From the NCBI GenBank assembly GCA_001563335.1, contig LRSL01000054.1, positions 1-48,502 on the forward strand: 48,502 nt of DNA, in the 5' to 3' direction. Below the pieces are notes generated by a model. It had not been told where the DNA came from, searched no databases, and worked only from the letters and a program-made list of their open reading frames with translations. Shown one piece after another: positions 7,601 through 38,481 of the stretch. Each line of letters opens with the position of its first letter. Position 1 is the first letter of the stretch. The translations under genes were made by a program, and so were the position numbers. The DNA is from Candidatus Thorarchaeota archaeon SMTZ1-45 (GTDB lineage Archaea; Asgardarchaeota; Thorarchaeia; Thorarchaeales; Thorarchaeaceae).

Positions 7601-7626
7601 TCAATCTGCTCTTGACAGTTACCTAG
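4606..7626 (+). CDS. Large membrane protein, UPF0182/COG1615-like
   Basis: Multiple N-terminal TM helices, then a large extramembrane domain with T..A.GL, VRQWD, W.N..I.YTH..G, IYYGEG, D.DPYIV, P.WL..QL..PEDL...Q and YGN.L motifs typical of UPF0182. Confidence 0.75.
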   Translation: MRYLRIIIILTIITAVGLVVGGAAYGWWLGQTIYIHTFDIKAGVGFWETWTLENNVFTASLLLAILTSVFTLWTRSTSLSFISALAQTGTHLKKLDIRTGVLWRLLQIGGFFLYYVSIGGYSLTGQNVAFLMMLMGDGAISVTPAEVGVLFSLPFAPGTTASSIQSLIPAMEAYQLYVGLISTVIVATAARLVLSVITDLMLQRRDIFVVLSKALLVVSLVLILEILSVPTWTVNAGTWMSYLALIIALGASLVGSVVFMVVRVRSGDVQQRLRSKIASLEGDLARLQGELLSLRQEYEAGAIGAEDYRTRVNMLMEDRVNISNELRRLKIERLLPIGGSQKSFAIVAGFLIVIVIMLPIIQGLYYGIQMDGDRYIDWKFNLQTNKEINITTWAAGLSDFEIKPIEDLTFNATPESEVESLTTVRQWDQTASYLRMRNQIGTNWMQLADSDIVLLKDHEYWIAPLTFDTSATWTSFINRYILYTHTEGIVVLDAFSGELVEGANLVSLFNRTKDVNIYYGEGRGFNDIVFVNVPSFQEVGNTSFEGTPDYTLQGFESFFYFLTMGPEAWSYLGRDMDMLVERDVLSRVDSIMLQGLSVDNDPYIVVDPDGTLFYAVSIFIDYHLSTGYAHENYMRFMGVCLVNIETGEMEFYSAPHSDEGLFLDITYRTYYDWQDTPDWLQSQLKWPEDLYERQLEVAYIYHVTEGEQWSTGVDFHQKPEESDTRYVIMNIEGIERFVAYHNSEFRQTLAHNLAGIYIMGCGDTDFGRFTFYKAGEDGYANWLGPIAAVQAFETNDVVRTQLQLWGEHRYGNRLLYHLGGDLFFVIPVFLEVETSQNRVIQKLGGVGLVDVQTGDRVTLGASVVEAYYKMFGLLNQTIVEEGEVGFESVSFNPVTIDSGEFANLIALMRNNDNITQHLYLDIVVASESNFSIYWHGSEVIPTIHVGDNQTFTLDIGNVGAGDLYGTAPRVTAYLPEGYVLAQYLVQIILRTDAGIVDQINLLLTVT

Positions 7627-8570
7627 AGCGAGTACTCTCTGTACCATGAGATGGTCCAATCCAGTCCGGTTGTGAAAGGAACAGCTGGAGAGAACCTCAG
7701 GACATTTGAAGTCCTCCTCATACTTCCAATACTATCCTTCACGTCCCCCTCACGTGCGTCACGATGAATAATGCTTGAAGTTGATTCTGGGATTCTCTCT
7801 TTAACCATTCGAGCTAGGTCTAGAATGCTAGTAGCATCTTCTCCAGATATATTTAGAACCTGATTTGACGCACTCTCAAGCTGACTACCAAGAAGAGTAG
7901 CTCTCACTACATCATCGACATAGATGAAACTTCTAGTCTGCCTTCCGTCCCCATCAATAGTGATGTCTTTATTTCGGAGTCCCCGATTGATAAATATAGA
8001 AATCACTCCACTATACTCTGAATTCTCTTGGCGCGGTCCAAACACATTGAAGTATCTAAATATCGTTGAAGGAATACCATATAGGTCCCCATATGCAATA
8101 CTATACTTCTCAGCAGAGATCTTTGAGGCTGCATAGGGGCTCAGAGGAATTAAAGGCGCTTCCTCTGTAACAGGAAGAGTGTTTGGATTTCCATATACTG
8201 CTGCGCTAGAACTATATACGAATCTCTTTGCATTGTGTTTTCTAGCCATCTCTAAGGCATTTATGGTGCCATGAACATTGGTGTCATTTACAAGAATTGG
8301 GTCTTCAACAGAGAGCTTCACTGATGATATTGCCGCGAGATGGAAGATGACATCAACATCTTCCTTGACTGCAGCAGGGAACTTTTTCTCACAAACATCT
8401 CTCTCCAGGAATTGGAAGGTTTCATGTTTCAGAGCATGTGCCAAGTTCTGCATACTTCCAGTCCTCAGGTTATCTATCCCAATAACAAAGTATCCTCTCT
8501 CTAGTAGCATATCAACAAGGTGGCTTCCGATAAAACCAGCCGCTCCTGTAACAACAGCTCTTTTCGTCAT
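7623..8570 (-). CDS. NAD-dependent nucleotide-sugar epimerase/dehydratase (extended SDR, GalE/WbpP-like)
   Basis: VTGAAGFIGSH, SSSAAVYG, YAASK (YxxxK), RYFNVFGPRQ and GDGRQTRSFIYVDD. Confidence 0.93.
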   Translation of the reverse strand: MTKRAVVTGAAGFIGSHLVDMLLERGYFVIGIDNLRTGSMQNLAHALKHETFQFLERDVCEKKFPAAVKEDVDVIFHLAAISSVKLSVEDPILVNDTNVHGTINALEMARKHNAKRFVYSSSAAVYGNPNTLPVTEEAPLIPLSPYAASKISAEKYSIAYGDLYGIPSTIFRYFNVFGPRQENSEYSGVISIFINRGLRNKDITIDGDGRQTRSFIYVDDVVRATLLGSQLESASNQVLNISGEDATSILDLARMVKERIPESTSSIIHRDAREGDVKDSIGSMRRTSNVLRFSPAVPFTTGLDWTISWYREYSL

Positions 8571-9001: not shown

Positions 9002-10531
9002 GTGATGCTGATGACTGAGATAGTCTTGGCAATTGATGCAGGAACGACTGGTGTGCGGTCCATGTTCTTCGACAAGAAAGGACGGGTAATGGGCATGGCT
9101 TACTCTGAATATAAGAGTGAATATCCCAGTCCATCGTGGGTAGAACAGGATGCTGAGAGTTGGTGGTCAAAATCTTGTGAGACCATTAAAACCGCTCTGG
9201 CTGATACTGGTCAAGGACCTGAGAACGTCGTAGGTGTTAGCGTAACAAATCAACGAGAAACGATTGTTCCGATTGCTGAAAATGGAACCCCATTACGAAA
9301 TGCTATAGTCTGGCAGGACAGACGGACCATTCCTCAATGTGAGTGGATATGTAATCAGATGTCTGAGGATGAAGTCTACTCGATAACTGGACTCACAGTC
9401 GACCCTTATTTTTCAGCACCAAAAATACTCTGGATTAAGGAAAAGGAACAGTCCAGCTTCAAGAAAGCACACAAGTTCCTGCTTGTACATGACTACCTCA
9501 TTCATTGTCTATCTGACGAACTTATCACTGACTTCTCGAATGCCAGTAGGACTATGCTCTTTGATGTTCGAAGAGCCACTTGGTCTGAGAGAATGCTAGA
9601 TGTTCTCGGAATTCCAAACGAAAAACTACCCACTCCCGTTGAACCCGGGGCACGAATAGGTGAGATCACTGCAAGTGCTGCCAACGATACTGGTCTTGGG
9701 GAGGGCACGCCTGTTATTGCAGGTGGTGGGGACCAACAATGTGCAGCTCTCGGTGTTGGAGTGGTCAAGGAGGGCATGCTCAAATCAACAACAGGCACAG
9801 GTACCTTCATGCTTGCTCATTCCAAGACTATCCGGTTAGATCCAGGCAGACGAGTGCTTTGTAGTCGTCATGTTGTTCCCAATGCGTTCGTAGTAGAAGC
9901 AAGTATGTTCACAACTGGGTCTGCGCTTAAGTGGTTCAGAGATAATCTGGGGAGCGAAGAACGAACTGTTGCACATGACAAAGGCATAGACCCGTATGAG
10001 ATTATCACAGAAGAAGCTAGCAAGATACCTGCTGGCTCGGAAGGTGTACTTCACATCCCCCATTTTGTCGGAGCTGGAGCCCCAAATTGGAATCCTCACG
10101 CACGTGGTATCTTTGCTGGTCTTGCATTGGGTCACACCCGTGCTCACATCATTCGATCCATTCTCGAAGGTGTATCCTATGAGATTCGAACCAATGTTGA
10201 AGTGATGCGAGAACTTGGACTGCCATCCAAAGAGGTTCGTGTCACAGGTGGTGCAGCAAGAAGTAAGGTATGGATGCAGATTCAGGCTAACATACTTCGA
10301 ACACCAGTAATTCGCACTCAGTTAGAAGAAGCTACCGCTGTGGGTGCAGCTATTTTGGCGTTTAAAGGAATAGGGGTCTTCAAATCAGTGACTCAGGCAG
10401 CTGAGGAGATGGTGAAAACACTTCCTCCTTTGTCCCCAACAAAAGACACTCTTGAGGTGTATCAAAAGGGATACAAGAAGTTCAAGGAACTGTATTCTGC
10501 AATCTCTGACCTACGGCTTGATGAAGACTAG
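9002..10531 (+). CDS. FGGY-family carbohydrate kinase (xylulokinase/glycerol kinase-like)
   Basis: IDAGTTG, WVEQD, TNQRET, AIVWQDRRT, DFSNASRTMLFD, GGGDQQ and VTGGAARS. Confidence 0.92.
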   Translation: MMLMTEIVLAIDAGTTGVRSMFFDKKGRVMGMAYSEYKSEYPSPSWVEQDAESWWSKSCETIKTALADTGQGPENVVGVSVTNQRETIVPIAENGTPLRNAIVWQDRRTIPQCEWICNQMSEDEVYSITGLTVDPYFSAPKILWIKEKEQSSFKKAHKFLLVHDYLIHCLSDELITDFSNASRTMLFDVRRATWSERMLDVLGIPNEKLPTPVEPGARIGEITASAANDTGLGEGTPVIAGGGDQQCAALGVGVVKEGMLKSTTGTGTFMLAHSKTIRLDPGRRVLCSRHVVPNAFVVEASMFTTGSALKWFRDNLGSEERTVAHDKGIDPYEIITEEASKIPAGSEGVLHIPHFVGAGAPNWNPHARGIFAGLALGHTRAHIIRSILEGVSYEIRTNVEVMRELGLPSKEVRVTGGAARSKVWMQIQANILRTPVIRTQLEEATAVGAAILAFKGIGVFKSVTQAAEEMVKTLPPLSPTKDTLEVYQKGYKKFKELYSAISDLRLDED

Positions 10532-11814
10532 TTTGCATAAACTGCAATCTTGTTTCCTTTGTCAAGTACTAGTATTTTCACATCTGGATCCTCATTTATC
10601 CACTCATCTATGACAGTTTGTGGATTTTCTACACTCTCAAGATGAGCTGCCTGCACTGTTTCTTTGTCAAGCTTTGAATATAACAGGACCCGTGACACTC
10701 GCTTCAAGAGCTCCGCAAACTTGTATGCTTTATGCTCATAGAGGTGATACCTACCACTAATCGATTCAATAACATCATCAAGAGGCGCAGTAAGTTTGTT
10801 GTAGAAATTCTCGATTGCTGAATCTGGGGCGATACCATCTCGGCATTCAGCAAGAAACAGAATCTGACCACCATCAACAATGGCATTCTTTGTAAGTTCA
10901 ATTGCTCGCTGAGCATGATAGAGGCTCTTGTCTTGAGGATACCCCCCAGGCGAAACAACTACTCTGGTTCGTGGAGTGACTGTGAAGCTCGAGGTTTCAT
11001 CCAATAGCTCCATTCCACGTGCTGTAACTGGCTCCGGATGCCCTGCATCTGCCCACACAAGTTTCCTGTTACTTGTTATGATAGCAACAAGGAAAATCTT
11101 TGCCTTGCGAGTGATAATTCCCATGGCTTCTCTCATATCATCAGCCAAAGGATTGTTTCTTCTGGACTCATCAGGATGAAATGGATGGATTCCAAATGTC
11201 GAGCGTGGATTGAGTGCTAGAGAATGGTTAGCTTCAATGGTCTTGAAGGCACATAAACCCGGAAGGAAGTTCTTCACCACGTTCGAATAACCCGCGAAGT
11301 AATGTGCCTTCATATCGGACAGACTCACATACACATCATGCCCAATTGCTGAAGCATTTACTATTACTGGAGTCCCTCTTCTGGTTTCTCCCAGGTCAAT
11401 CATGTCTTTCGACTGGCAGTCGTGAATTGTGACATCATAGTTTGTGAGTTTTACATCATCTGCAGCACGCTTAATCATGTCAACAATCTCTAGGTTTCCA
11501 GGATGGTTGACCTCATGTGATCCGGTAGTAATGATGAATTGGACACGATTAGCATCCGTGAGGCGTGGGACAACAGCTGAAATCATCGCCCAGTGTGGTG
11601 CATCACGAGTGTGATCCTCAACCAATACGCATACACTCTTACTCTTCGAAATGTCAGAGAGGAGAGGACCATGAGGATTGTCAAGAACTCTTTCAATCCC
11701 AGATTGCACATCTGCCGAGGTCTTAGTGGTCTTTGGTTCTATAATTCCTGCAAGGTTCTTTTCAGGAATTACAAGCTTGATAGTGCCATCACCATATGTC
11801 ACGTTTACATCCAA
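10528..11814 (-). CDS. Lactate racemase LarA-family (nickel-pincer-dependent racemase/epimerase)
   Basis: EDHTR, TGSH, IHDC, GETRRGTPV.VN, HYFAGYS...K..LPG, NH, SPGGYPQD.SLY.AQ and AECRDG motifs. Confidence 0.85.
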   Translation of the reverse strand: MDVNVTYGDGTIKLVIPEKNLAGIIEPKTTKTSADVQSGIERVLDNPHGPLLSDISKSKSVCVLVEDHTRDAPHWAMISAVVPRLTDANRVQFIITTGSHEVNHPGNLEIVDMIKRAADDVKLTNYDVTIHDCQSKDMIDLGETRRGTPVIVNASAIGHDVYVSLSDMKAHYFAGYSNVVKNFLPGLCAFKTIEANHSLALNPRSTFGIHPFHPDESRRNNPLADDMREAMGIITRKAKIFLVAIITSNRKLVWADAGHPEPVTARGMELLDETSSFTVTPRTRVVVSPGGYPQDKSLYHAQRAIELTKNAIVDGGQILFLAECRDGIAPDSAIENFYNKLTAPLDDVIESISGRYHLYEHKAYKFAELLKRVSRVLLYSKLDKETVQAAHLESVENPQTVIDEWINEDPDVKILVLDKGNKIAVYAN

Positions 11815-30105: not shown

Positions 30106-31383
30106 ATGGCAAACACAACAGGCAATGGCTATGGCTTTGCTACCTGGACTAATTTTATCGAAGAATCTCAGATAAGAGCTCTTCTCAAGTATAATGTCAA
30201 GTACTATTTTGCTGGCGGAAAACCTGGTATAATACCCACTGGTATCTTCGCAGACATCATGGCAGACTTGAGTGTCAAATACAAAGAGAACCCGAAGTTA
30301 GCGCTTGACGACTTTAACTATGGTCCAACCGGTGGTGAAACCTGGTTCCTAAAGACGCTCGCTAAAAGACTCTGTGATGTTAGAGGCATTCCTATTGACT
30401 GCGAAACCGAATGGGATAGAGTCGCAATCACAAATGGCTCTCAGCAGGCAATCTACGCGCTACTTGACACTTTGATTGATCCAGGAGATGTGATAATCAC
30501 ACCATCTCCAGCCTATCTTGGGTTCTTGGCACCCGCTGAGAAACTCGGAGGGCGTGTCATCACGATTCCAACTGATCTTGATGGAATCATCCCGGGGGAT
30601 GTTGAAAAAGCAATCGAAGTTTCAAAAAAGAAATTTGGTAAGTGTCCGGATATAATCTATGTAGTTCCTGACTCTGATAATCCAAAAGGCACAACACTCC
30701 CAATGAAACGACGCCAAGCACTCTTTGATATTGCAGAAACATATGAGATACTCCTCATTGAAGACGCAGCATATGCAGAGATTCAATTCAAGGAGAATCC
30801 AAAAGCTATCAAAACTCTAGATAAAGAAAATAACCGTGTAGCCTACCTAGGGACTAGTAGCAAGGAGGCTGCTGTCCTAAGAGTTGGATACTCGGTACTT
30901 CCATCAGATGTTAAGGAACAAGTACTCAAGGATAAGGGTTACCTTGATCTCTGTACTACAACATTGGTACAGCGTATTCTTGATGAATACTACAAGAACT
31001 ATATTGATGAAGCAATGCGTGCTGGAATTCCAAAATACAAGAAACGCTATGAAGCAATGGCAAAGGCAATTGATGCCTCATTCCCAGCTGGTGTGAGGAC
31101 AGATCCTACTGGGGGATTCTTCATCTGGTGGCAGAGTAATGATAAGAAGTTTGATGCAGGGGAGTTCATGAAGCGTGTGGCAATTCCAAACGATATACTC
31201 TATGTTCCAGGAGCTCCATTCTATCCTCAATCCGGACATAGGTTAACAAAGGATAACACAGACCTTCGGAAGAGTCTTCCCCAGCCAAATACTATGAGAC
31301 TTGGATTTTCATATTTGCCACCTGAAACAATCTCAGAGGGAATTGAGCACTTAGGTGACCTTCTATCAAAGGAACTTGGATAA
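30106..31383 (+). CDS. PLP-dependent aminotransferase class I (LysN/Aro8-like)
   Basis: FAGGKP, NYGPTGG, ITNGSQQA, P..DNPKG, EDAAY, GTSSK....LRVGY, GGFFIW and MRLGFS. Confidence 0.9.
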   Translation: MANTTGNGYGFATWTNFIEESQIRALLKYNVKYYFAGGKPGIIPTGIFADIMADLSVKYKENPKLALDDFNYGPTGGETWFLKTLAKRLCDVRGIPIDCETEWDRVAITNGSQQAIYALLDTLIDPGDVIITPSPAYLGFLAPAEKLGGRVITIPTDLDGIIPGDVEKAIEVSKKKFGKCPDIIYVVPDSDNPKGTTLPMKRRQALFDIAETYEILLIEDAAYAEIQFKENPKAIKTLDKENNRVAYLGTSSKEAAVLRVGYSVLPSDVKEQVLKDKGYLDLCTTTLVQRILDEYYKNYIDEAMRAGIPKYKKRYEAMAKAIDASFPAGVRTDPTGGFFIWWQSNDKKFDAGEFMKRVAIPNDILYVPGAPFYPQSGHRLTKDNTDLRKSLPQPNTMRLGFSYLPPETISEGIEHLGDLLSKELG

Positions 31384-31385
31384 TC

Positions 31386-33101
31386 TTAGAAAAAGAAGTT
31401 CACGAATATTGTAGCTCCATTTTTCATTGGACCAATATAGGCTCGTTCAAATGGTCCGAAGAGGTCTGAGAATCCAGAGTTTATTGCCCACTCTATCCAT
31501 GCCCATGACGATTCTTGTCCCAATTTATTCTCAGAATATTGCCCAAATTGCCAGGACAAATACCGTTCCAAATCTAGTTTTTGAAACTGGAGCTTTTCAT
31601 AAGCATCTCCTGATGCTTGTGCAATCTTGCTATCGATATTCTCTAGACTTTCGTTTAGACTCGCATGAGTATCAAGAATTAGTTTCTTCAAATTGACAAG
31701 CTGTTTGTTCATCTCATCAAATTGGTTCTTTCTTCTACACTTGGAAATCTGTCCCGTCAGTTTGAACATATCCTTACTATGAAAGACCTCAACACCTTCA
31801 AACTCAAGACTCTTAGCTAGTTCCTCATTCCATGGTGTGTTAAAGTAAACTCTCGGATATTTGATGAACAGTGGGAAAGGAATCTCCATTGCTCTTGTAG
31901 ATGGAATAACTTGCGCATAATATGCTGTTTCTCCAGGACCCCCAACATGTACTACTGTTGGAATGAGTGTGTCAATCAAAATCTGTCTAGTATCTACTCG
32001 TGGTGACAGTTGAGCCGCAATCTCTCCAAGATATGGGCTATCTGTTGAAGTTTCAATTTCGATTGACTCGGAGCAAGATGGACACTTGCCTGTCAGAACA
32101 GCTGTAGCTCCTAGGTCCTCATAATGGAGCTCTGTTCGACTATTGTTACATCCTGGATTAGGACACTCATAAAAGAAGGGAACATAATCCGTGCCTCTAC
32201 GTCCAATTCCTGGTTCATATCCGTGAAACTCAATGAGATCTGTCATTTCGTCGAAAGTGTTCAGAAACCGTTCTCTGTTATTTCTTACAAGTAGAAACTC
32301 CATTCCCTCAACAAGAAGCTCGCGTACCTCTTTTTCAGAAGCAATGAGTAAAGGTATGCCAAGATCCCCTACTATATTGAATAAGTATGCAATAATCCTT
32401 TCTGCCCACTCTCCAAGTGTCTTAGAGTTATAGAACGCGCTCCTAATAATTGTCAACGATTGTTCAAGACGCTCCTCGAATAATATTCGCGCATGTTGTT
32501 CTAGATTCTTGAACATAGGTCTGTAATTACTTCTGATGTCATCTTCAACATGGCTTAGCCAATCATTCTCTGGTAGTGGCAGAACACTAACAGGCGAGTT
32601 CTCAAAATCCTGAGGGACAGGTATACTGATTAAATTCCCATCTTTACCCATTAAAGGAGTTCGAATGTTTGTTAACTCTGATTGCACAGTATCATAATCT
32701 GCAAAGCAAAAGAATGGTACTAGAGGAACACCTTGGTTGGCTGCGAGAGTTGCGACTTGAGCTGCTGTTGTTGCCTTGTTCAAAATATAAGCTGGTCCCC
32801 CCATCACGACTGGTTGGTGTGCAGATTCTACTGCGCCTATATCCAGTTTCTCTATGTTCTCTCTGACTTTAGGTGTCAAAGAACCTAGTTTTTTATTGCT
32901 TTCAACAAGTGCCTTCTTGAGAGAACTCATTTTCTCTGGAATATGCCAGAGCATGTCTTCGTATGAATCCAGAAGCGCAGGGACTCTATCAATAATACCG
33001 TCAAGGGTAAGTGGAGGTGTATTATAGAGATTTTTAGCAAGTTCTGCCCTTTGTCCATTCCAGATGAATTCCTCATAGACTTTGTATACACTAGGGCTCA
33101 A
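31386..33101 (-). CDS. bshC: Bacillithiol biosynthesis cysteine-adding enzyme BshC-like
   Basis: ESAHQP..MGGPAYILNK, VPFF..ADYD and LSP.VDTR....DTLIPTV.HVGGPGETAYYAQ match BshC motifs. Co-oriented 12 bp downstream of bshA. Confidence 0.8.
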   Translation of the reverse strand: MSPSVYKVYEEFIWNGQRAELAKNLYNTPPLTLDGIIDRVPALLDSYEDMLWHIPEKMSSLKKALVESNKKLGSLTPKVRENIEKLDIGAVESAHQPVVMGGPAYILNKATTAAQVATLAANQGVPLVPFFCFADYDTVQSELTNIRTPLMGKDGNLISIPVPQDFENSPVSVLPLPENDWLSHVEDDIRSNYRPMFKNLEQHARILFEERLEQSLTIIRSAFYNSKTLGEWAERIIAYLFNIVGDLGIPLLIASEKEVRELLVEGMEFLLVRNNRERFLNTFDEMTDLIEFHGYEPGIGRRGTDYVPFFYECPNPGCNNSRTELHYEDLGATAVLTGKCPSCSESIEIETSTDSPYLGEIAAQLSPRVDTRQILIDTLIPTVVHVGGPGETAYYAQVIPSTRAMEIPFPLFIKYPRVYFNTPWNEELAKSLEFEGVEVFHSKDMFKLTGQISKCRRKNQFDEMNKQLVNLKKLILDTHASLNESLENIDSKIAQASGDAYEKLQFQKLDLERYLSWQFGQYSENKLGQESSWAWIEWAINSGFSDLFGPFERAYIGPMKNGATIFVNFFF

Positions 33102-33113
33102 AGTAGTTCTCTC

Positions 33114-34286
33114 CTACTTAGATAGTATATCCTCGAAGACTCTCTCGTACATACTCACAACACGTTCCGCAGCGAATGAGTCCTCAACGCGTTTTCTACC
33201 GGCTTTTCCTAAGTTTTTCCGTTTTTCATCATTCTCCAGTAACTCAATAATCGCTTGCGCATACTCTTCTTGGTCAAATCCTTTCGTGACCATTCCATCT
33301 GTCCCTGGACGAACTAATTCAGGAATTCCTCCCGCTGGAGTCGTGATTACAGGAAGGCCGCATGCCATCGCCTCAAGCAGCACAAGCGGCATTCCCTCCA
33401 ATGTTGAGTTTAGCAGGAATAGGTCTGCAGAGCACATAATCTCCTGCATATTGCTCTTAACACCAAGTAGGTGAATATTATTACATAGATCTAACGCCTC
33501 TATTTTCCTTTCAACCTCAATACGTGTTGGTCCATCACCTGCAATAATCAATCTGGCTTTTTGAAAGTGGTCCACCACTATTCTCATTATTTCAACGAGT
33601 TCGACGACTCGCTTTACTTTTCGGAAGTTGGATGCATGTAACAGTATCTTCTCTTCTGGATTGAGCTCAATAGCTTCCTCCTCCTTTCGAAGTCCCACAC
33701 AACCACTTTCAACATAGAGTCGTACACCATTCAGGTGTGAGAATTTTGTGATGTCAATAAAGTTTGGAATCACATGTATCTCTCGCTCAATCCCGAGTTC
33801 CTCATGTGCTTTTTTCTTCAAAAATTCCGAAACCGCTGTTACAGCATCTGCTTTTTCGATAGTGTGTTGAACAACTGGTTTGTATGCAGGGTCTTGACCC
33901 AAAGAGTGAACATCTGAACCATGTAGTGTCACTACATACGGAATTCCAGCAATCTCTCGTGCCATGTAGGCGGCCATTGCATGTGGAATTGCGTAATGTG
34001 CATGGATTAGATCAAGCTTCGAGTCTGTCGCAACTTTGATTATTTTTGATGTTAGAGCCATAGCATAAGGTGGTCCAGTTCCCTCAAAGAGAGGATATTC
34101 AAAGCTATCCACTAGGTCTACGTGTACTCCTCTCGTCTGTTCCCACATAAGAGAGAACGGCCTCTGGTAAGTGATGAAGTGGATAATGTGGCCTCTATGG
34201 GCTAATTCTTGACCCAGTCGCGTTGCAAGGTAACCACTGCCGCCAACTGTGGGATATAGATTAACTCCAATCCTCAAGTAGTACAC
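33114..34286 (-). CDS. bshA: N-acetyl-alpha-D-glucosaminyl L-malate synthase (GT4)
   Basis: YPTVGGSG.LAT.LGQELA.RGH.IHFIT, FE..PY.MALTSK, HAHYAIPHA, TLHGSD and HASNFRKVKRV are BshA-diagnostic. Confidence 0.9.
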   Translation of the reverse strand: MYYLRIGVNLYPTVGGSGYLATRLGQELAHRGHIIHFITYQRPFSLMWEQTRGVHVDLVDSFEYPLFEGTGPPYAMALTSKIIKVATDSKLDLIHAHYAIPHAMAAYMAREIAGIPYVVTLHGSDVHSLGQDPAYKPVVQHTIEKADAVTAVSEFLKKKAHEELGIEREIHVIPNFIDITKFSHLNGVRLYVESGCVGLRKEEEAIELNPEEKILLHASNFRKVKRVVELVEIMRIVVDHFQKARLIIAGDGPTRIEVERKIEALDLCNNIHLLGVKSNMQEIMCSADLFLLNSTLEGMPLVLLEAMACGLPVITTPAGGIPELVRPGTDGMVTKGFDQEEYAQAIIELLENDEKRKNLGKAGRKRVEDSFAAERVVSMYERVFEDILSK

Positions 34287-34383
34287 CTACCTTCTCCCTG
34301 AGCTGGCTGTCCCTTTAAGGCAAATGGTTTGGACAACTCATGGTTGCCAAACCTTGATTAGAAGGTGTTCGGGAAGTTGTTTT

Positions 34384-35052
34384 ATGAGCGGTTCGGATGA
34401 GGGAACAATTCTCGTAGTCGTCGCACATCCTGATGATGAGTGCATTGGAGCTGGTGGAACCATAAAGCGACATGTGGACCAGGGTGTGAATGTTGATGTT
34501 CATTGTATGACAGGAAATGATGAGCGTAATGCAGAGCTTCAAAGAGCCTGTGAAATTCTTGGTGTGCGAAATCTGTACCTGAGTGAGCGGGATGATTTTG
34601 CAATTGGTCTGGAACTCACAAACGAGGTAGTCGGAGCAATTCTAAAATCACGTCCCAATTTCATCATCACTCATCATTCCTCTGATTACAACCGCAACCA
34701 TCAGCAGTGTGCAACGATTGTCAGCCAGGCGGCTGAGTGGGCGTCACATGTTACGATCTTTGATGATGCACATAGAGTAGAGCGTATCTACAATATGGAG
34801 ATCAACACAATGATCTCTAGACCCAATGTGCATGTTGATATTACCGCGTCTTATCCTACAGCTTTGGCTGCTCTCAAGAAGCACAAGTCCCAGGTAAAGA
34901 AGGCTGACTCCTACTATGAACAACTATATGATGCAAGAACACGACTACGTGGAGTCCAAGCGAACTGTGAGAGAGCTGAAGCTTTTTCAATAACCCTTCC
35001 AGAACATGCTGGTCCTTTCTATGAGAAAAATAGTGTAGAAAGTCTATTTTAG
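34384..35052 (+). CDS. bshB: PIG-L/LmbE-family deacetylase, probable BshB
   Basis: VVAHPDDE..GAGG, R.AE...A..ILG, VDIT, H.SQ and RG......AEAF; divergent from bshA. Start trimmed to the ATG at 34384. Confidence 0.78.
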   Translation: MSGSDEGTILVVVAHPDDECIGAGGTIKRHVDQGVNVDVHCMTGNDERNAELQRACEILGVRNLYLSERDDFAIGLELTNEVVGAILKSRPNFIITHHSSDYNRNHQQCATIVSQAAEWASHVTIFDDAHRVERIYNMEINTMISRPNVHVDITASYPTALAALKKHKSQVKKADSYYEQLYDARTRLRGVQANCERAEAFSITLPEHAGPFYEKNSVESLF

Positions 35053-35061
35053 CTCAATCCA

Positions 35062-35469
35062 TTACTCCGGACCTTCAGTCTTTCTTCTACGAGCTGCCAA
35101 GAGGGCTTTTAATTCTCCCATCATACTCATACCACCACCAGGCGCACCTGCTGGTTTGGGAGTGGGTGCTCTAGCCATGGTTGGAATTGGTTCCGCGCCA
35201 GCTGCAGGGGCTGCTGCAGGTCCTCCGGTTGATGCTGCCGCCGCAGGAGCGCGAGCTGCCATGGATGACATCCTGTTTTCCAGTGCATCAACTTTACTCT
35301 CTAAATCCATGACGGAAATCTGCAGGTTAGTTATAGCTTCAGTCAACTTAGTCGTGATTATACTGACTACTTCTCCAAGCTGCCGGATTTTTTCCTCGTT
35401 TGGATCCTTCAGTGCCCATTCGAATTCTCCAAGAATTTCTTCTTCAAGTTCTTTCTTTTCATCCGGCAT
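35062..35469 (-). CDS. Coiled-coil / Ala-Pro linker / basic amphipathic helix protein (WH2- or VASP-FAB-like C-terminus)
   Basis: 135 aa with heptads LTEAITNLQISVMDLESKVDALENRM, a low-complexity APAAA..PTPKP linker and GGGMSMMGELKALLAARRRK. TATA-like TTTATA about 45 bp upstream. Confidence 0.75.
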   Translation of the reverse strand: MPDEKKELEEEILGEFEWALKDPNEEKIRQLGEVVSIITTKLTEAITNLQISVMDLESKVDALENRMSSMAARAPAAAASTGGPAAAPAAGAEPIPTMARAPTPKPAGAPGGGMSMMGELKALLAARRRKTEGPE

Positions 35470-35530: not shown

Positions 35531-36907
35531 CTAAGCTGAAGCTATTGTAGCTCTAACAACTTCCTCTGAGGTCCTTAATATTTCTTCTACAGCTTCTCTG
35601 GTCTGCCCCTCGCAGGTAATCCTGATAATGGGTTCTGTCCCTGATGGTCGGACCAGAATCCATCCTTGCTCCATAGTGATTCCAAGTCCATCTACAGTAA
35701 GAACCTCTTTTACATTCCTCATCTTGCTTGGAAGTGTTTCTGAAATAGACTTCATCACACTCTCCTTCTTGTCATTGGGGCACTCCAGCTTACTCCGTAT
35801 GATCGGATATTGAGGAATTGTAGCAATCAACTCTCCAAATGTCTTTTCAGTTCTAGCCATCAGTTCAAGAACTCTACATACTGCTAAAAACGGTTCAGGG
35901 GCGAGATGTGCCTCTGGAAATATATATACTCCACACGCCTCTCCACCAATTACTCCATTTGACTCCGCCACTTTGATTGCCACTTGGATGTCTCCAACAG
36001 GTGTTCGAATTATGTTTCCACCCGCTCTTCTTACGGTTTCATCTAAAACAAGTGAACTGTCGACAGTTGTAACTACTGTGCCACGTTTCGATGCTAACAT
36101 GGCCTGCTGTGCCAGAAGAGCTATAGTTCTGTCTCCCTTGATCACTTCTCCCTGCTCAGTCACAAAGATGACTCTGTCTGAATCACCATCATGTGCTATT
36201 CCTAGATCTGCACCTGTCTGCTTGATCATCTGAATGAGGTCTCCAAGAGATTCTTCATCGGGCTCAGATCGTCTTCCTGGAAAATGACCATCCAATTGAC
36301 CATTTATTGTCACAACATGACAATTGAGACGTTGCATCAAATATGGTGTTAACACACATGCTGCCCCATTACCTGGGTCCACAATAACCCTGAAGGTCTT
36401 CGACCTAATAGCATCCGCATCACATCTCTTCAGCAGTGCTTCAATGTGCTCTTCGACACTATCTTCAAATCTTGACTCCTTCCCAAGTTCATCCCAGTTA
36501 GCAACTTTGAAGTTCTTCTTGTTGTAAATCTCTTCCAGTTTGGTTTCTTCCTTCGCTGTGAATCCCATGCTGTTTCGCGACCAGAACTTGAGTCCAGTGT
36601 ATTGGGGTGGATTGTGCGATGCAGTTATCATGACCCCTGCATCAAAACCATGCTTCATTGTGATGAACGCAAGTGTTGGAGTTGGGATGATTCCAGCACG
36701 TATCACATTGACGCCTGTCGATAATATACCAGCAGTAACAGTATCTGCAATCATGAGGCCTGTGGTACGAGCATCACGAGCAATAACAACAGACCCACTA
36801 CCAACATAGGTCCCAAGAGCTTTGCCGAGATTCAGTGCCATCTCAAGATCAAACTCTTCACTGTATACCTTTCTCACGCCTGTTGTACCAAAGAGCTTAC
36901 CAGTCAT
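35531..36907 (-). CDS. glmM: Alpha-D-phosphohexomutase (phosphoglucosamine mutase/PMM-PGM)
   Basis: LFGTTGVR, ITASHNP (phospho-Ser), HDGDSDR (metal loop), GGE..G and RPSGTEP. Start trimmed to the ATG at 36907. Confidence 0.9.
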   Translation of the reverse strand: MTGKLFGTTGVRKVYSEEFDLEMALNLGKALGTYVGSGSVVIARDARTTGLMIADTVTAGILSTGVNVIRAGIIPTPTLAFITMKHGFDAGVMITASHNPPQYTGLKFWSRNSMGFTAKEETKLEEIYNKKNFKVANWDELGKESRFEDSVEEHIEALLKRCDADAIRSKTFRVIVDPGNGAACVLTPYLMQRLNCHVVTINGQLDGHFPGRRSEPDEESLGDLIQMIKQTGADLGIAHDGDSDRVIFVTEQGEVIKGDRTIALLAQQAMLASKRGTVVTTVDSSLVLDETVRRAGGNIIRTPVGDIQVAIKVAESNGVIGGEACGVYIFPEAHLAPEPFLAVCRVLELMARTEKTFGELIATIPQYPIIRSKLECPNDKKESVMKSISETLPSKMRNVKEVLTVDGLGITMEQGWILVRPSGTEPIIRITCEGQTREAVEEILRTSEEVVRATIASA

Positions 36908-37017
36908 GGGGGTCACACGTCTGTTCGTTACGAATTCAGAAAAAAAGGTACCTACTGTCAAAATACGACTTTGAGCCACAAATCTCTATATTGATTATCT
37001 GCTGTTGACTGGTTGTC

Positions 37018-37812: not shown

Positions 37813-37932
37813 TTCATATTATAAATAGACCATATCTTACCAGTCGGCATAATCTTACGAAACCTTATTAGTCGCATAGACCCTCTATCGCTTTGTCGTC
37901 GTACCGCCTACCACATATGGGTGACTATACAC

Positions 37933-38481
37933 ATGAGCAGCTCTTACGATTACCTGTTTAAAATCGTCGTGTTAGGAGAGGGCGCAGTAGGAAAAACAGC
38001 AATAGTCACTCGATTCTCGCATGGTTTCTTCCGGACTGACTATAAAACCACTATTGGAAGTCAGTTCGCTGTCAAAAATGTCAACATCCCCCGTGATGCT
38101 GGTGATGTCACTGTGAAGCTGCAGATCTGGGATGTCGCTGGGCAAAGCCGATTCCAAATTCTTCGGCCCATGTACTACCGTGGGTCAAGTGGTGGTCTTC
38201 TCGTGTATGATGTTACTCGACGAAGGACCTTCATAGTACTTGAAGAATGGCTTGAGGAGCTTCATAAGGCATTAAACAAAGAAATTCCTCTCGTACTAGT
38301 GGCGAACAAGACAGACCTTCCTGACAGGGTGGTTGAACCTTTAGAGGGGCGCGACTTTGCTGATAGGCACGGAATGCCCTATATCGAGTCTTCTGCTAAG
38401 ACTGGAGAGGGTATTATTGATATCTTCAGTGAGCTTGCAGAAATTCTAGTGGTAACTCGTGAAAAGGGCGGCAACTACTAA
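37933..38481 (+). CDS. Rab-like small GTPase (Ras superfamily)
   Basis: YDYLFKIVVLGEGAVGKT (G1), TIG (G2), WDVAGQ (G3), NKTD (G4) and ESSAK (G5). Confidence 0.95.
   Translation: MSSSYDYLFKIVVLGEGAVGKTAIVTRFSHGFFRTDYKTTIGSQFAVKNVNIPRDAGDVTVKLQIWDVAGQSRFQILRPMYYRGSSGGLLVYDVTRRRTFIVLEEWLEELHKALNKEIPLVLVANKTDLPDRVVEPLEGRDFADRHGMPYIESSAKTGEGIIDIFSELAEILVVTREKGGNY

Follow-up and report, generated by a model that had tools for sequence, protein, structure and literature searches.

Does the genome of a Thorarchaeota archaeon encode a pathway for bacillithiol, and how closely do its enzymes resemble those of bacteria? The question is raised by three adjoining genes at positions 31386-35052 of contig LRSL01000054.1 from Candidatus Thorarchaeota archaeon SMTZ1-45, a stretch of 48,502 nucleotides that was analyzed as a whole and that we refer to as the window. 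An earlier sequence-only reading had taken the three genes for a complete bacillithiol-type cluster, with bshA, bshC and a PIG-L deacetylase gene in the place of bshB. We find that the locus is probably an archaeal form of the bacillithiol-type pathway, and that its product, judging from homology, would be bacillithiol or a closely related cysteinyl-aminosugar-malate thiol. The families to which the proteins belong, their fold and conserved residues, the linkage of the genes, and their distribution are directly established by the analyses described here.

The three open reading frames (ORFs) lie exactly where the sequence-only reading had placed them. A 12-bp gap (33102-33113) separates the stop of the GT4 glycosyltransferase gene from the start of the gene for a 571-amino-acid (aa) protein on the same strand, and the PIG-L and GT4 genes are transcribed divergently. 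The features of the cluster are:

31386-33101, minus strand: archaeal-type bshC; 571 aa, BshC fold, presumed cysteine-adding step
32073-32165, minus strand: Cys-knuckle (zinc-ribbon-like) element of BshC, with C313, C318, C340 and C343
33114-34286, minus strand: bshA; 390 aa, GT4 glycosyltransferase, presumed first step (N-acetylhexosaminyl-malate synthase)
33372-33398, minus strand: EX7E motif of BshA (E297-E305), reading E-G-M-P against the canonical E-S-F-G
34287-34383, no strand: intergenic region from which bshA and the PIG-L gene diverge, presumed from its position to hold promoters
34324-35052, plus strand: PIG-L/LmbE-family deacetylase, candidate BshB; 242-aa ORF with a probable start at 34384 (M21)

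Identity of the three proteins

The 390-aa protein scores 389.2 bits with the BshA equivalog TIGR03999 (cut-off 273.7, E 1.8e-116) and covers model positions 2-374 of 375, and the next GT4 family follows at 149.9 bits. This hidden Markov model search bears out the BshA identity proposed in the sequence-only reading. Against solved BshA structures, the protein scores 276.9 bits with that of Bacillus anthracis (2JJM/3MBO) and 266.3 bits with that of Bacillus subtilis (5D00), and it shares 35% identity with a bacterial-type BshA from another genome bin. Between its two Rossmann-like halves, at residues ≈182-208 (33663-33743, minus strand), the window BshA is ≈20 residues longer than bacterial BshA.

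The 571-aa protein contains the BshC Rossmann-like domain PF10079 (75.2 bits against a gathering cut-off of 27, E 8.2e-21, residues 58-413). A sequence search with this protein barely finds the solved BshC, at 24.1 bits. Its AlphaFold2 (AF2) model, built on 44 sequences, has a predicted local distance difference test score (pLDDT) of 92.9 and a predicted template modeling score (pTM) of 0.92. The only strong full-length PDB match of the model in Foldseek is B. subtilis BshC 4WBD (E 1.5e-19, TMq 0.67, TMt 0.71, 17% identity), and the second fold match is a class I lysyl-tRNA synthetase (LysRS), 1IRX, at E 1e-6.

A profile search of 1.84 billion representatives returned 4257 BshC family members at E ≤1e-10. 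We aligned 137 full-length sequences, comprising 19 from this analysis and 118 representatives of at least 480 aa among the matches listed; 31 of the 149 representatives drawn from 150 listed matches were excluded as shorter than 480 aa. The residues Q96, G102, K109, D137, E142, R322, G388, E391, and Y394 are retained in 136 of these 137 sequences, archaeal and canonical together. The knuckle positions (C313/C318 and C340/C343), in contrast, separate the two groups: archaeal-type proteins have four cysteines there in 28 of 44 sequences, three in 13, and two in the other 3, whereas canonical proteins have none in 88 of 93 and a single one in 5. In an unrooted FastTree phylogeny of a 98-row subsample, 66 archaeal-type rows split from 32 canonical rows with a support of 100. 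Archaeal BshC is a separate clade with a Cys-knuckle insert. The four knuckle cysteines were judged from sequence and secondary structure, the AF2 model places beta strands at this element, and we predict that the element binds metal. Cys knuckles inserted into the catalytic domain are common in the class I aminoacyl-tRNA synthetase superfamily.

The 242-aa ORF matches PF02585 (PIG-L) with 74.5 bits (cut-off 28.2, E 1.4e-20). Its true start is probably 34384, because homologues begin at the residue aligned with M21. The best PDB match is the BshB protein BC1534 (2IXD, 47.1 bits). The HxDD+H metal and general-base motif is retained, with H35, D37, D38, and H126 corresponding to H12, D14, D15, and H113 of BC1534, and R68 aligns with Arg53 of that enzyme. 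Two more PIG-L genes are found in the genome, at G000:C22:10137-10523 (77.7 bits) and G000:C61:377-712 (34.9 bits); either could encode a second deacetylase or a Bca-type conjugate amidase.

Linkage and distribution

The three genes travel together well beyond the window. At 18 loci from other Asgard families, bshA adjoins bshC in 13 and a PIG-L gene adjoins it in 11. A scan that took one genome per species added 80 further loci (43 ranked as Bathyarchaeota, 19 as Thorarchaeota, 5 as Promethearchaeota, 1 each as Hermodarchaeota and Heimdallarchaeota, 2 as bacterial phyla, and 9 unranked), of which 69 have an adjacent bshA, 63 an adjacent PIG-L gene, and 58 have both. The Thor-type loci extend the linkage to six genes, GlmM-p135-PIG-L-BshA-BshC-aminotransferase, in 22 of 30 cases, the remaining 8 being interrupted by contig ends. 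This conserved linkage confirms that the three genes form one cluster in an archaeon, as the sequence-only reading had held.

Across 201 sampled genomes of the phylum, a BshC-like gene is present in 108 and BshA above its cut-off in 88. By family, the BshC-like gene occurs in 43/43 genomes of f1 (the family of the window), 21/21 of f5, 17/19 of f12, 7/7 of f14, and 9/10 of f22, but in 0/40 of f9. The Bathyarchaeota BshC clade is sister to the Thor-type clade with a support of 96 (FastTree, unrooted), and this placement hints at transfer between Bathyarchaeota and Thor-type sediment archaea.

Two sets of loci depart from this pattern. Asgard bins G123 and G042 each hold a same-strand bshC-bshB-bshA operon of canonical bacterial type (loci L034, G123:C20, and L035, G042:C95). 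Their proteins score 386 and 382 bits with TIGR03998 and 237 and 217 bits with TIGR04001, pass all cut-offs, and nest among canonical sequences; the operons are either a recent bacterial transfer or bin contamination. Conversely, an archaeal-type BshC gene is found on short contigs labelled Desulfaltia (L080), Krumholzibacteriaceae (L090), and Patescibacteria (L101), the last title belonging to one of the nine unranked loci. At L090, bshA and a PIG-L gene lie beside the BshC gene. Because L090, the only bacterial-labelled row in the tree, lies within the Bathyarchaeota clade (distance 0.04), these three are probably mis-binned archaeal contigs.

A proposed pathway

We infer each chemical step of the route, and its physiological role, from homology to characterized families. 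BshA would transfer an N-acetylhexosamine from a UDP-sugar to L-malate, the PIG-L metallo-deacetylase would remove the acetyl group, and the BshC-fold enzyme would join cysteine to the amine thus freed. The neighboring GlmM could feed the UDP-GlcNAc (UDP-N-acetylglucosamine) pool. The resulting thiol would serve as a redox and detoxification cofactor, and its action may be mediated by the many DinB-type proteins encoded in the genome rather than by the bacilliredoxin/Bdr system of Firmicutes.

Pfam DinB_2, which we take to cover YfiT, has 10 matches in the genome. By a hand tally of the 201 genomes, 94 have both a BshC-like gene and DinB_2, 14 have only the former, 5 have only the latter, and 88 have neither; DinB_2 is found in 9 of 11 families with the BshC-like gene and in 1 of 16 families without it. 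As relatives among the genomes do not count as independent cases, the co-occurrence is no more than suggestive. Both bacillithiol and mycothiol S-transferases are found among the DinB/YfiT proteins (PMC5790435).

Weighing the assignment

Although family, fold, and linkage argue for this pathway, several observations weigh against it, beginning with the scores for the second and third enzymes. The 571-aa protein reaches 86.2 bits with the BshC equivalog TIGR03998, below the cut-off of 265.8 (E 2.2e-24), and the PIG-L protein falls below both BshB equivalogs, at 80.9 bits with TIGR04001 (BshB1, cut-off 182.5) and 53.5 bits with TIGR04000 (BshB2, cut-off 195.25). Low BshC scores are shared by the other archaeal-type loci (38-92 bits with TIGR03998, or no match), as opposed to the 386 and 382 bits of the two bacterial-type loci. 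The sequence-only reading had called the 571-aa protein BshC and the deacetylase BshB. For the former, the PF10079 domain, the 4WBD fold, and the invariant residues stand behind the name while the equivalog score does not; for the latter, the PIG-L family, the metal site, and the linkage to bshA and bshC agree with the role, and neither BshB model does.

The active sites raise further objections. An archaeal diacetylchitobiose deacetylase matches the PIG-L protein at 43.9 bits, nearly equal to the 47.1 bits of BshB. The substrate and catalytic residues of BC1534 are Arg53, Arg109, His110, and Asp112 (PMC4101496), and in the window protein Y122, N123, and N125 replace the last three. This motif reads DYNRNH in Thor-type deacetylases, DYH-x-(D/E)-H in other archaeal types, and DRHPDH in canonical bacterial ones. 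In Staphylococcus aureus BshA, the Glu and Phe of the ESFG motif (280-283) contact GlcNAc (PMC10361700). The window BshA reads E297-G-M-P300 instead, retaining the Glu but replacing Phe with Met and Gly with Pro.

The surroundings of the pathway also count on this side. Within the genome, which is 87.7% complete, BrxA/B (PF06491) and BrxC/YtxJ (TIGR04019) have 0 matches, and the best match to YpdA/Bdr (TIGR04018) is 77.3 bits against a cut-off of 339.9, with none above it. Because the genome is incomplete, we describe these partners as not found rather than absent. Nine of 10 f22 genomes have the BshC-like gene, yet BshA is nowhere above the cut-off in that family, and family f24 has the gene in 2 of 3 genomes with BshA above the cut-off in 0 of 3, so a BshC-like enzyme need not always work with BshA. 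Another sugar donor system may serve the BshC-like enzyme of these families. At f22 loci, an aminotransferase is the sole neighbor seen beside bshC, and up to 16 DinB_2 copies occur in this family.

Published work adds three cautions. The cysteine-adding reaction of BshC has never been reconstituted, even in bacteria (PMC5790435), and a bacillithiol- or mycothiol-type glycoside thiol has been measured in no archaeon (PMC7278568). A RefSeq survey published in 2025, which applied strict BLAST thresholds, recorded the pathway in no archaeon (PMC12719100); we attribute its discrepancy with the archaeal matches of a 2020 review (PMC7278568) to the divergence of the archaeal proteins as measured here.

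Alternative explanations

The alternative that survives best keeps the logic of the pathway and changes its product. Thor- and Bathyarchaeota-type BshA would then use another donor, such as UDP-N-acetylgalactosamine, or another hydroxy-acid acceptor, and the cluster would make a bacillithiol analogue. The BshA motif speaks for such a change. Counted over 75 rows, limited to ORFs of at least 340 aa, EGMP occurs in 30/30 Thor-type rows, EGAP in 2/2 rows of family f12, and E-x-x-P in 32/33 Bathyarchaeota-type rows, whereas the 10 rows with ESFG or ESFN are the Heimdall-type sequences plus the single bacterial-type one. In the enzyme of Neisseria meningitidis W, Pro versus Gly at the fourth position of the motif sets the use of galactose versus glucose (PMC10361700). 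The substrate-contact residues of the deacetylase are changed too. However, the BshA equivalog score of 389 bits extends over the full length of the protein, the argument from the motif is transferred from a distant GT4 enzyme, and the cluster lacks a 4-epimerase, the nearest epimerase-like gene lying ≈25 kb away at 7623-8570. On balance, we regard a changed donor or acceptor as unlikely, though as a serious alternative.

A bolder form of this idea, drawn by analogy, is that the cluster of Thor and Bathyarchaeota type makes an undescribed archaeal thiol instead of bacillithiol, and that the reaction of its Cys-knuckle BshC can be reconstituted. Cysteinyl-galactosamine-malate is a candidate for such a thiol because BshA has Pro where, in the EX7E motif, the related enzyme discriminates between C4 epimers. 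The proposal is speculative and we consider it doubtful; if it were true, a Cys-knuckle BshC amenable to reconstitution would settle the question of the activated cysteine donor of BshC.

It is less likely still that the cluster makes no thiol. The GT4 enzyme and the PIG-L protein would then produce a glycoconjugate, solute, or lipid precursor that bears glucosamine, and what the BshC-fold enzyme ligates would be something other than cysteine. Pairs of GT4 and PIG-L enzymes make glucosamine lipids in other systems, and several of the objections raised above fit such a role: the PIG-L protein is almost as close to chitobiose deacetylase as to BshB, BshC-like genes occur without BshA in f22 and f24, and bacilliredoxin and Bdr were not found in the genome at 87.7% completeness. 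The chemistry of BshC is also undefined (PMC5790435). Set against these points, the GT4 protein is specifically BshA-like (389 bits versus ≤150 for other GT4 families), every core residue of the BshC family is retained, the three genes co-travel across Asgard archaea and Bathyarchaeota, and DinB_2 proteins co-occur with them. We judge a non-thiol product to be improbable.

Whether the contig is archaeal at all was the remaining concern. The window is one entire contig of a 3.54-Mb genome bin of 119 contigs, with an estimated completeness of 87.72% and an estimated contamination of 5.82%. It encodes archaeal markers, namely A-type ATP synthase subunits C, K, E, and I, a RadA-like recombinase, an archaeal apgM, and a small GTPase. 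Its GC content is even (0.41-0.47), and the NCBI labels on close homologues of the 571-aa protein are Candidatus Thorarchaeota or Promethearchaeota. Together with the recurring six-gene order, these features contradict the idea of a bacterial or chimeric contig, which the sequence-only reading had named as grounds for abandoning its own proposal, and support the archaeal host that it assumed. The contig is archaeal, Thorarchaeota-like, and non-chimeric. Bacterial DNA, either on a mis-binned or chimeric contig or from a very recent transfer, is therefore rejected as a source with near certainty, even though bins G123 and G042 do hold bacterial-type operons above all cut-offs and the estimated contamination is 5.82%, because archaeal markers flank the cluster on both sides in DNA of even GC content, 22 of 30 Thor-type loci repeat the gene order, and a branch with a support of 100, like the Cys knuckle, separates the archaeal-type BshC clade of 66 rows from the 32 canonical ones.

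The small GTPase is a Ras/Rab-like protein encoded at 37921-38481 (plus strand; TIGR00231, 92 bits), ≈3 kb away from the cluster; such genes are a typical feature of Asgard archaea. The sequencing runs that contain the stretch are labelled marine sediment or seawater metagenome; all are DNA runs, with no RNA run among them.

Neighboring genes

Three further genes complete the Thor-type gene order:

30106-31383, plus strand: class I/II aminotransferase (PF00155), tail to tail with bshC
35062-35469, minus strand: 135-aa protein with no Pfam match, flanked in Thor-type loci by glmM and the PIG-L gene
35531-36979, minus strand: archaeal phosphoglucosamine mutase GlmM (TIGR03990, 536.2 bits against a cut-off of 439)

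The mutase that the sequence-only reading had described as GlmM-like passes the archaeal GlmM equivalog and is a conserved neighbor, with its place in the gene order kept in 22 of 30 Thor-type loci; none was seen beside Bathyarchaeota clusters. GlmM presumably supplies precursor to the pathway.

The 135-aa protein has a helical N-terminal half and an Ala/Pro-rich tail, and its position is conserved throughout Thor-type loci. The ends of the aminotransferase gene and bshC are 2 bp apart. Thor-type loci and family f22 (L027 and L028) share this arrangement, even though the BshC proteins of the two groups are only ≈29% identical. The nearest solved relatives of the aminotransferase are Pyrococcus PH0207 and a multiple-substrate aminotransferase from Thermococcus. 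We considered it as a member of the pathway and set it aside, as it resembles a general archaeal aminotransferase. Elsewhere in the window, ≈20 kb from the cluster, a LarA-family protein (10528-11814, minus strand) is nearest to nickel-dependent malate racemases, at 247.1 bits, which is below the cut-off of 500; malate is the acceptor of BshA.

Relation to earlier work and significance

The idea of archaeal bacillithiol is not new, and in this respect the novelty implied by the sequence-only reading was overstated. In their 2020 review, Rawat and Maupin-Furlow report 39 archaeal InterPro matches each for BshA and BshC, mostly from Asgard archaea, and suggest that archaea may make bacillithiol (PMC7278568). 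At NCBI, the label 'bacillithiol biosynthesis BshC [Candidatus Thorarchaeota archaeon]' is already attached to close homologues. Because the basic prediction is thus both published and annotated, the value of the locus lies in its variant features. In the main texts of the open-licence literature and bioRxiv, we found no description of the archaeal BshC clade with Cys knuckles, the E-x-x-P motif of BshA, the altered deacetylase motif, the wide presence of the cluster in Bathyarchaeota, or the co-occurrence with DinB_2.

Production of such a thiol in Thorarchaeota, Heimdall-type lineages, and Bathyarchaeota alike would redraw the picture of which redox buffers cells use in the different domains of life. 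Asgard archaea bear on ideas of the origin of the eukaryotic cell, and the redox and detoxification chemistry of abundant sediment archaea could, if the thiol is made, become readable from their genomes. The archaeal BshC clade further offers a second, highly dissimilar form of this enzyme, which in bacteria still lacks a defined reaction.

Comparison with known systems

Several known systems resemble parts of this locus. Class I aminoacyl-tRNA synthetases are represented by LysRS 1IRX, the second-best fold match of the BshC-like model, but the similarity reaches a TM-score of only 0.36-0.42 and includes neither an anticodon-binding domain match nor a sequence match. The archaeal diacetylchitobiose deacetylase (Thermococcales Dac; 8BGN, 3WL4) has the PIG-L fold and metal motif in common with the window protein, whose gene, however, is linked to bshA and bshC instead of to genes for chitin use.

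The mycothiol pathway of Actinobacteria (MshA/MshB/MshC) follows a similar order, with a GT4 step, an LmbE-type deacetylase, and then the addition of cysteine to the aminosugar. The window proteins nevertheless score far below its models (64.9 bits against 462.5 for MshA and 27 against 224.35 for MshB). MshC, moreover, is a homologue of cysteinyl-tRNA synthetase, whereas the window protein has the BshC fold.

The bacterial bacillithiol pathway, known from Bacillus, Staphylococcus, Deinococcus-Thermus, and Chlorobi, uses the same three enzyme families encoded by linked genes. The window BshA passes the bacterial equivalog cut-off, the BshC fold and its invariant residues are retained, and so is the metal site of the PIG-L protein. 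Unlike bacterial BshC, the archaeal protein is only 17% identical to 4WBD, scores below TIGR03998, and has the Cys knuckle that is absent from 93/93 canonical sequences. Unlike bacterial BshB, the PIG-L protein scores below TIGR04001 and TIGR04000 and does not have equivalents of R109, H110, and D112, and the window BshA has EGMP in lieu of ESFG. BrxA/B, BrxC, and Bdr, which belong to the bacterial system, were not found in this 87.7% complete genome. Overall, the locus probably represents an archaeal form of the bacillithiol-type pathway, combining the enzyme families and gene linkage of the bacterial system with a BshA motif, a deacetylase site, and a Cys-knuckle BshC of its own.

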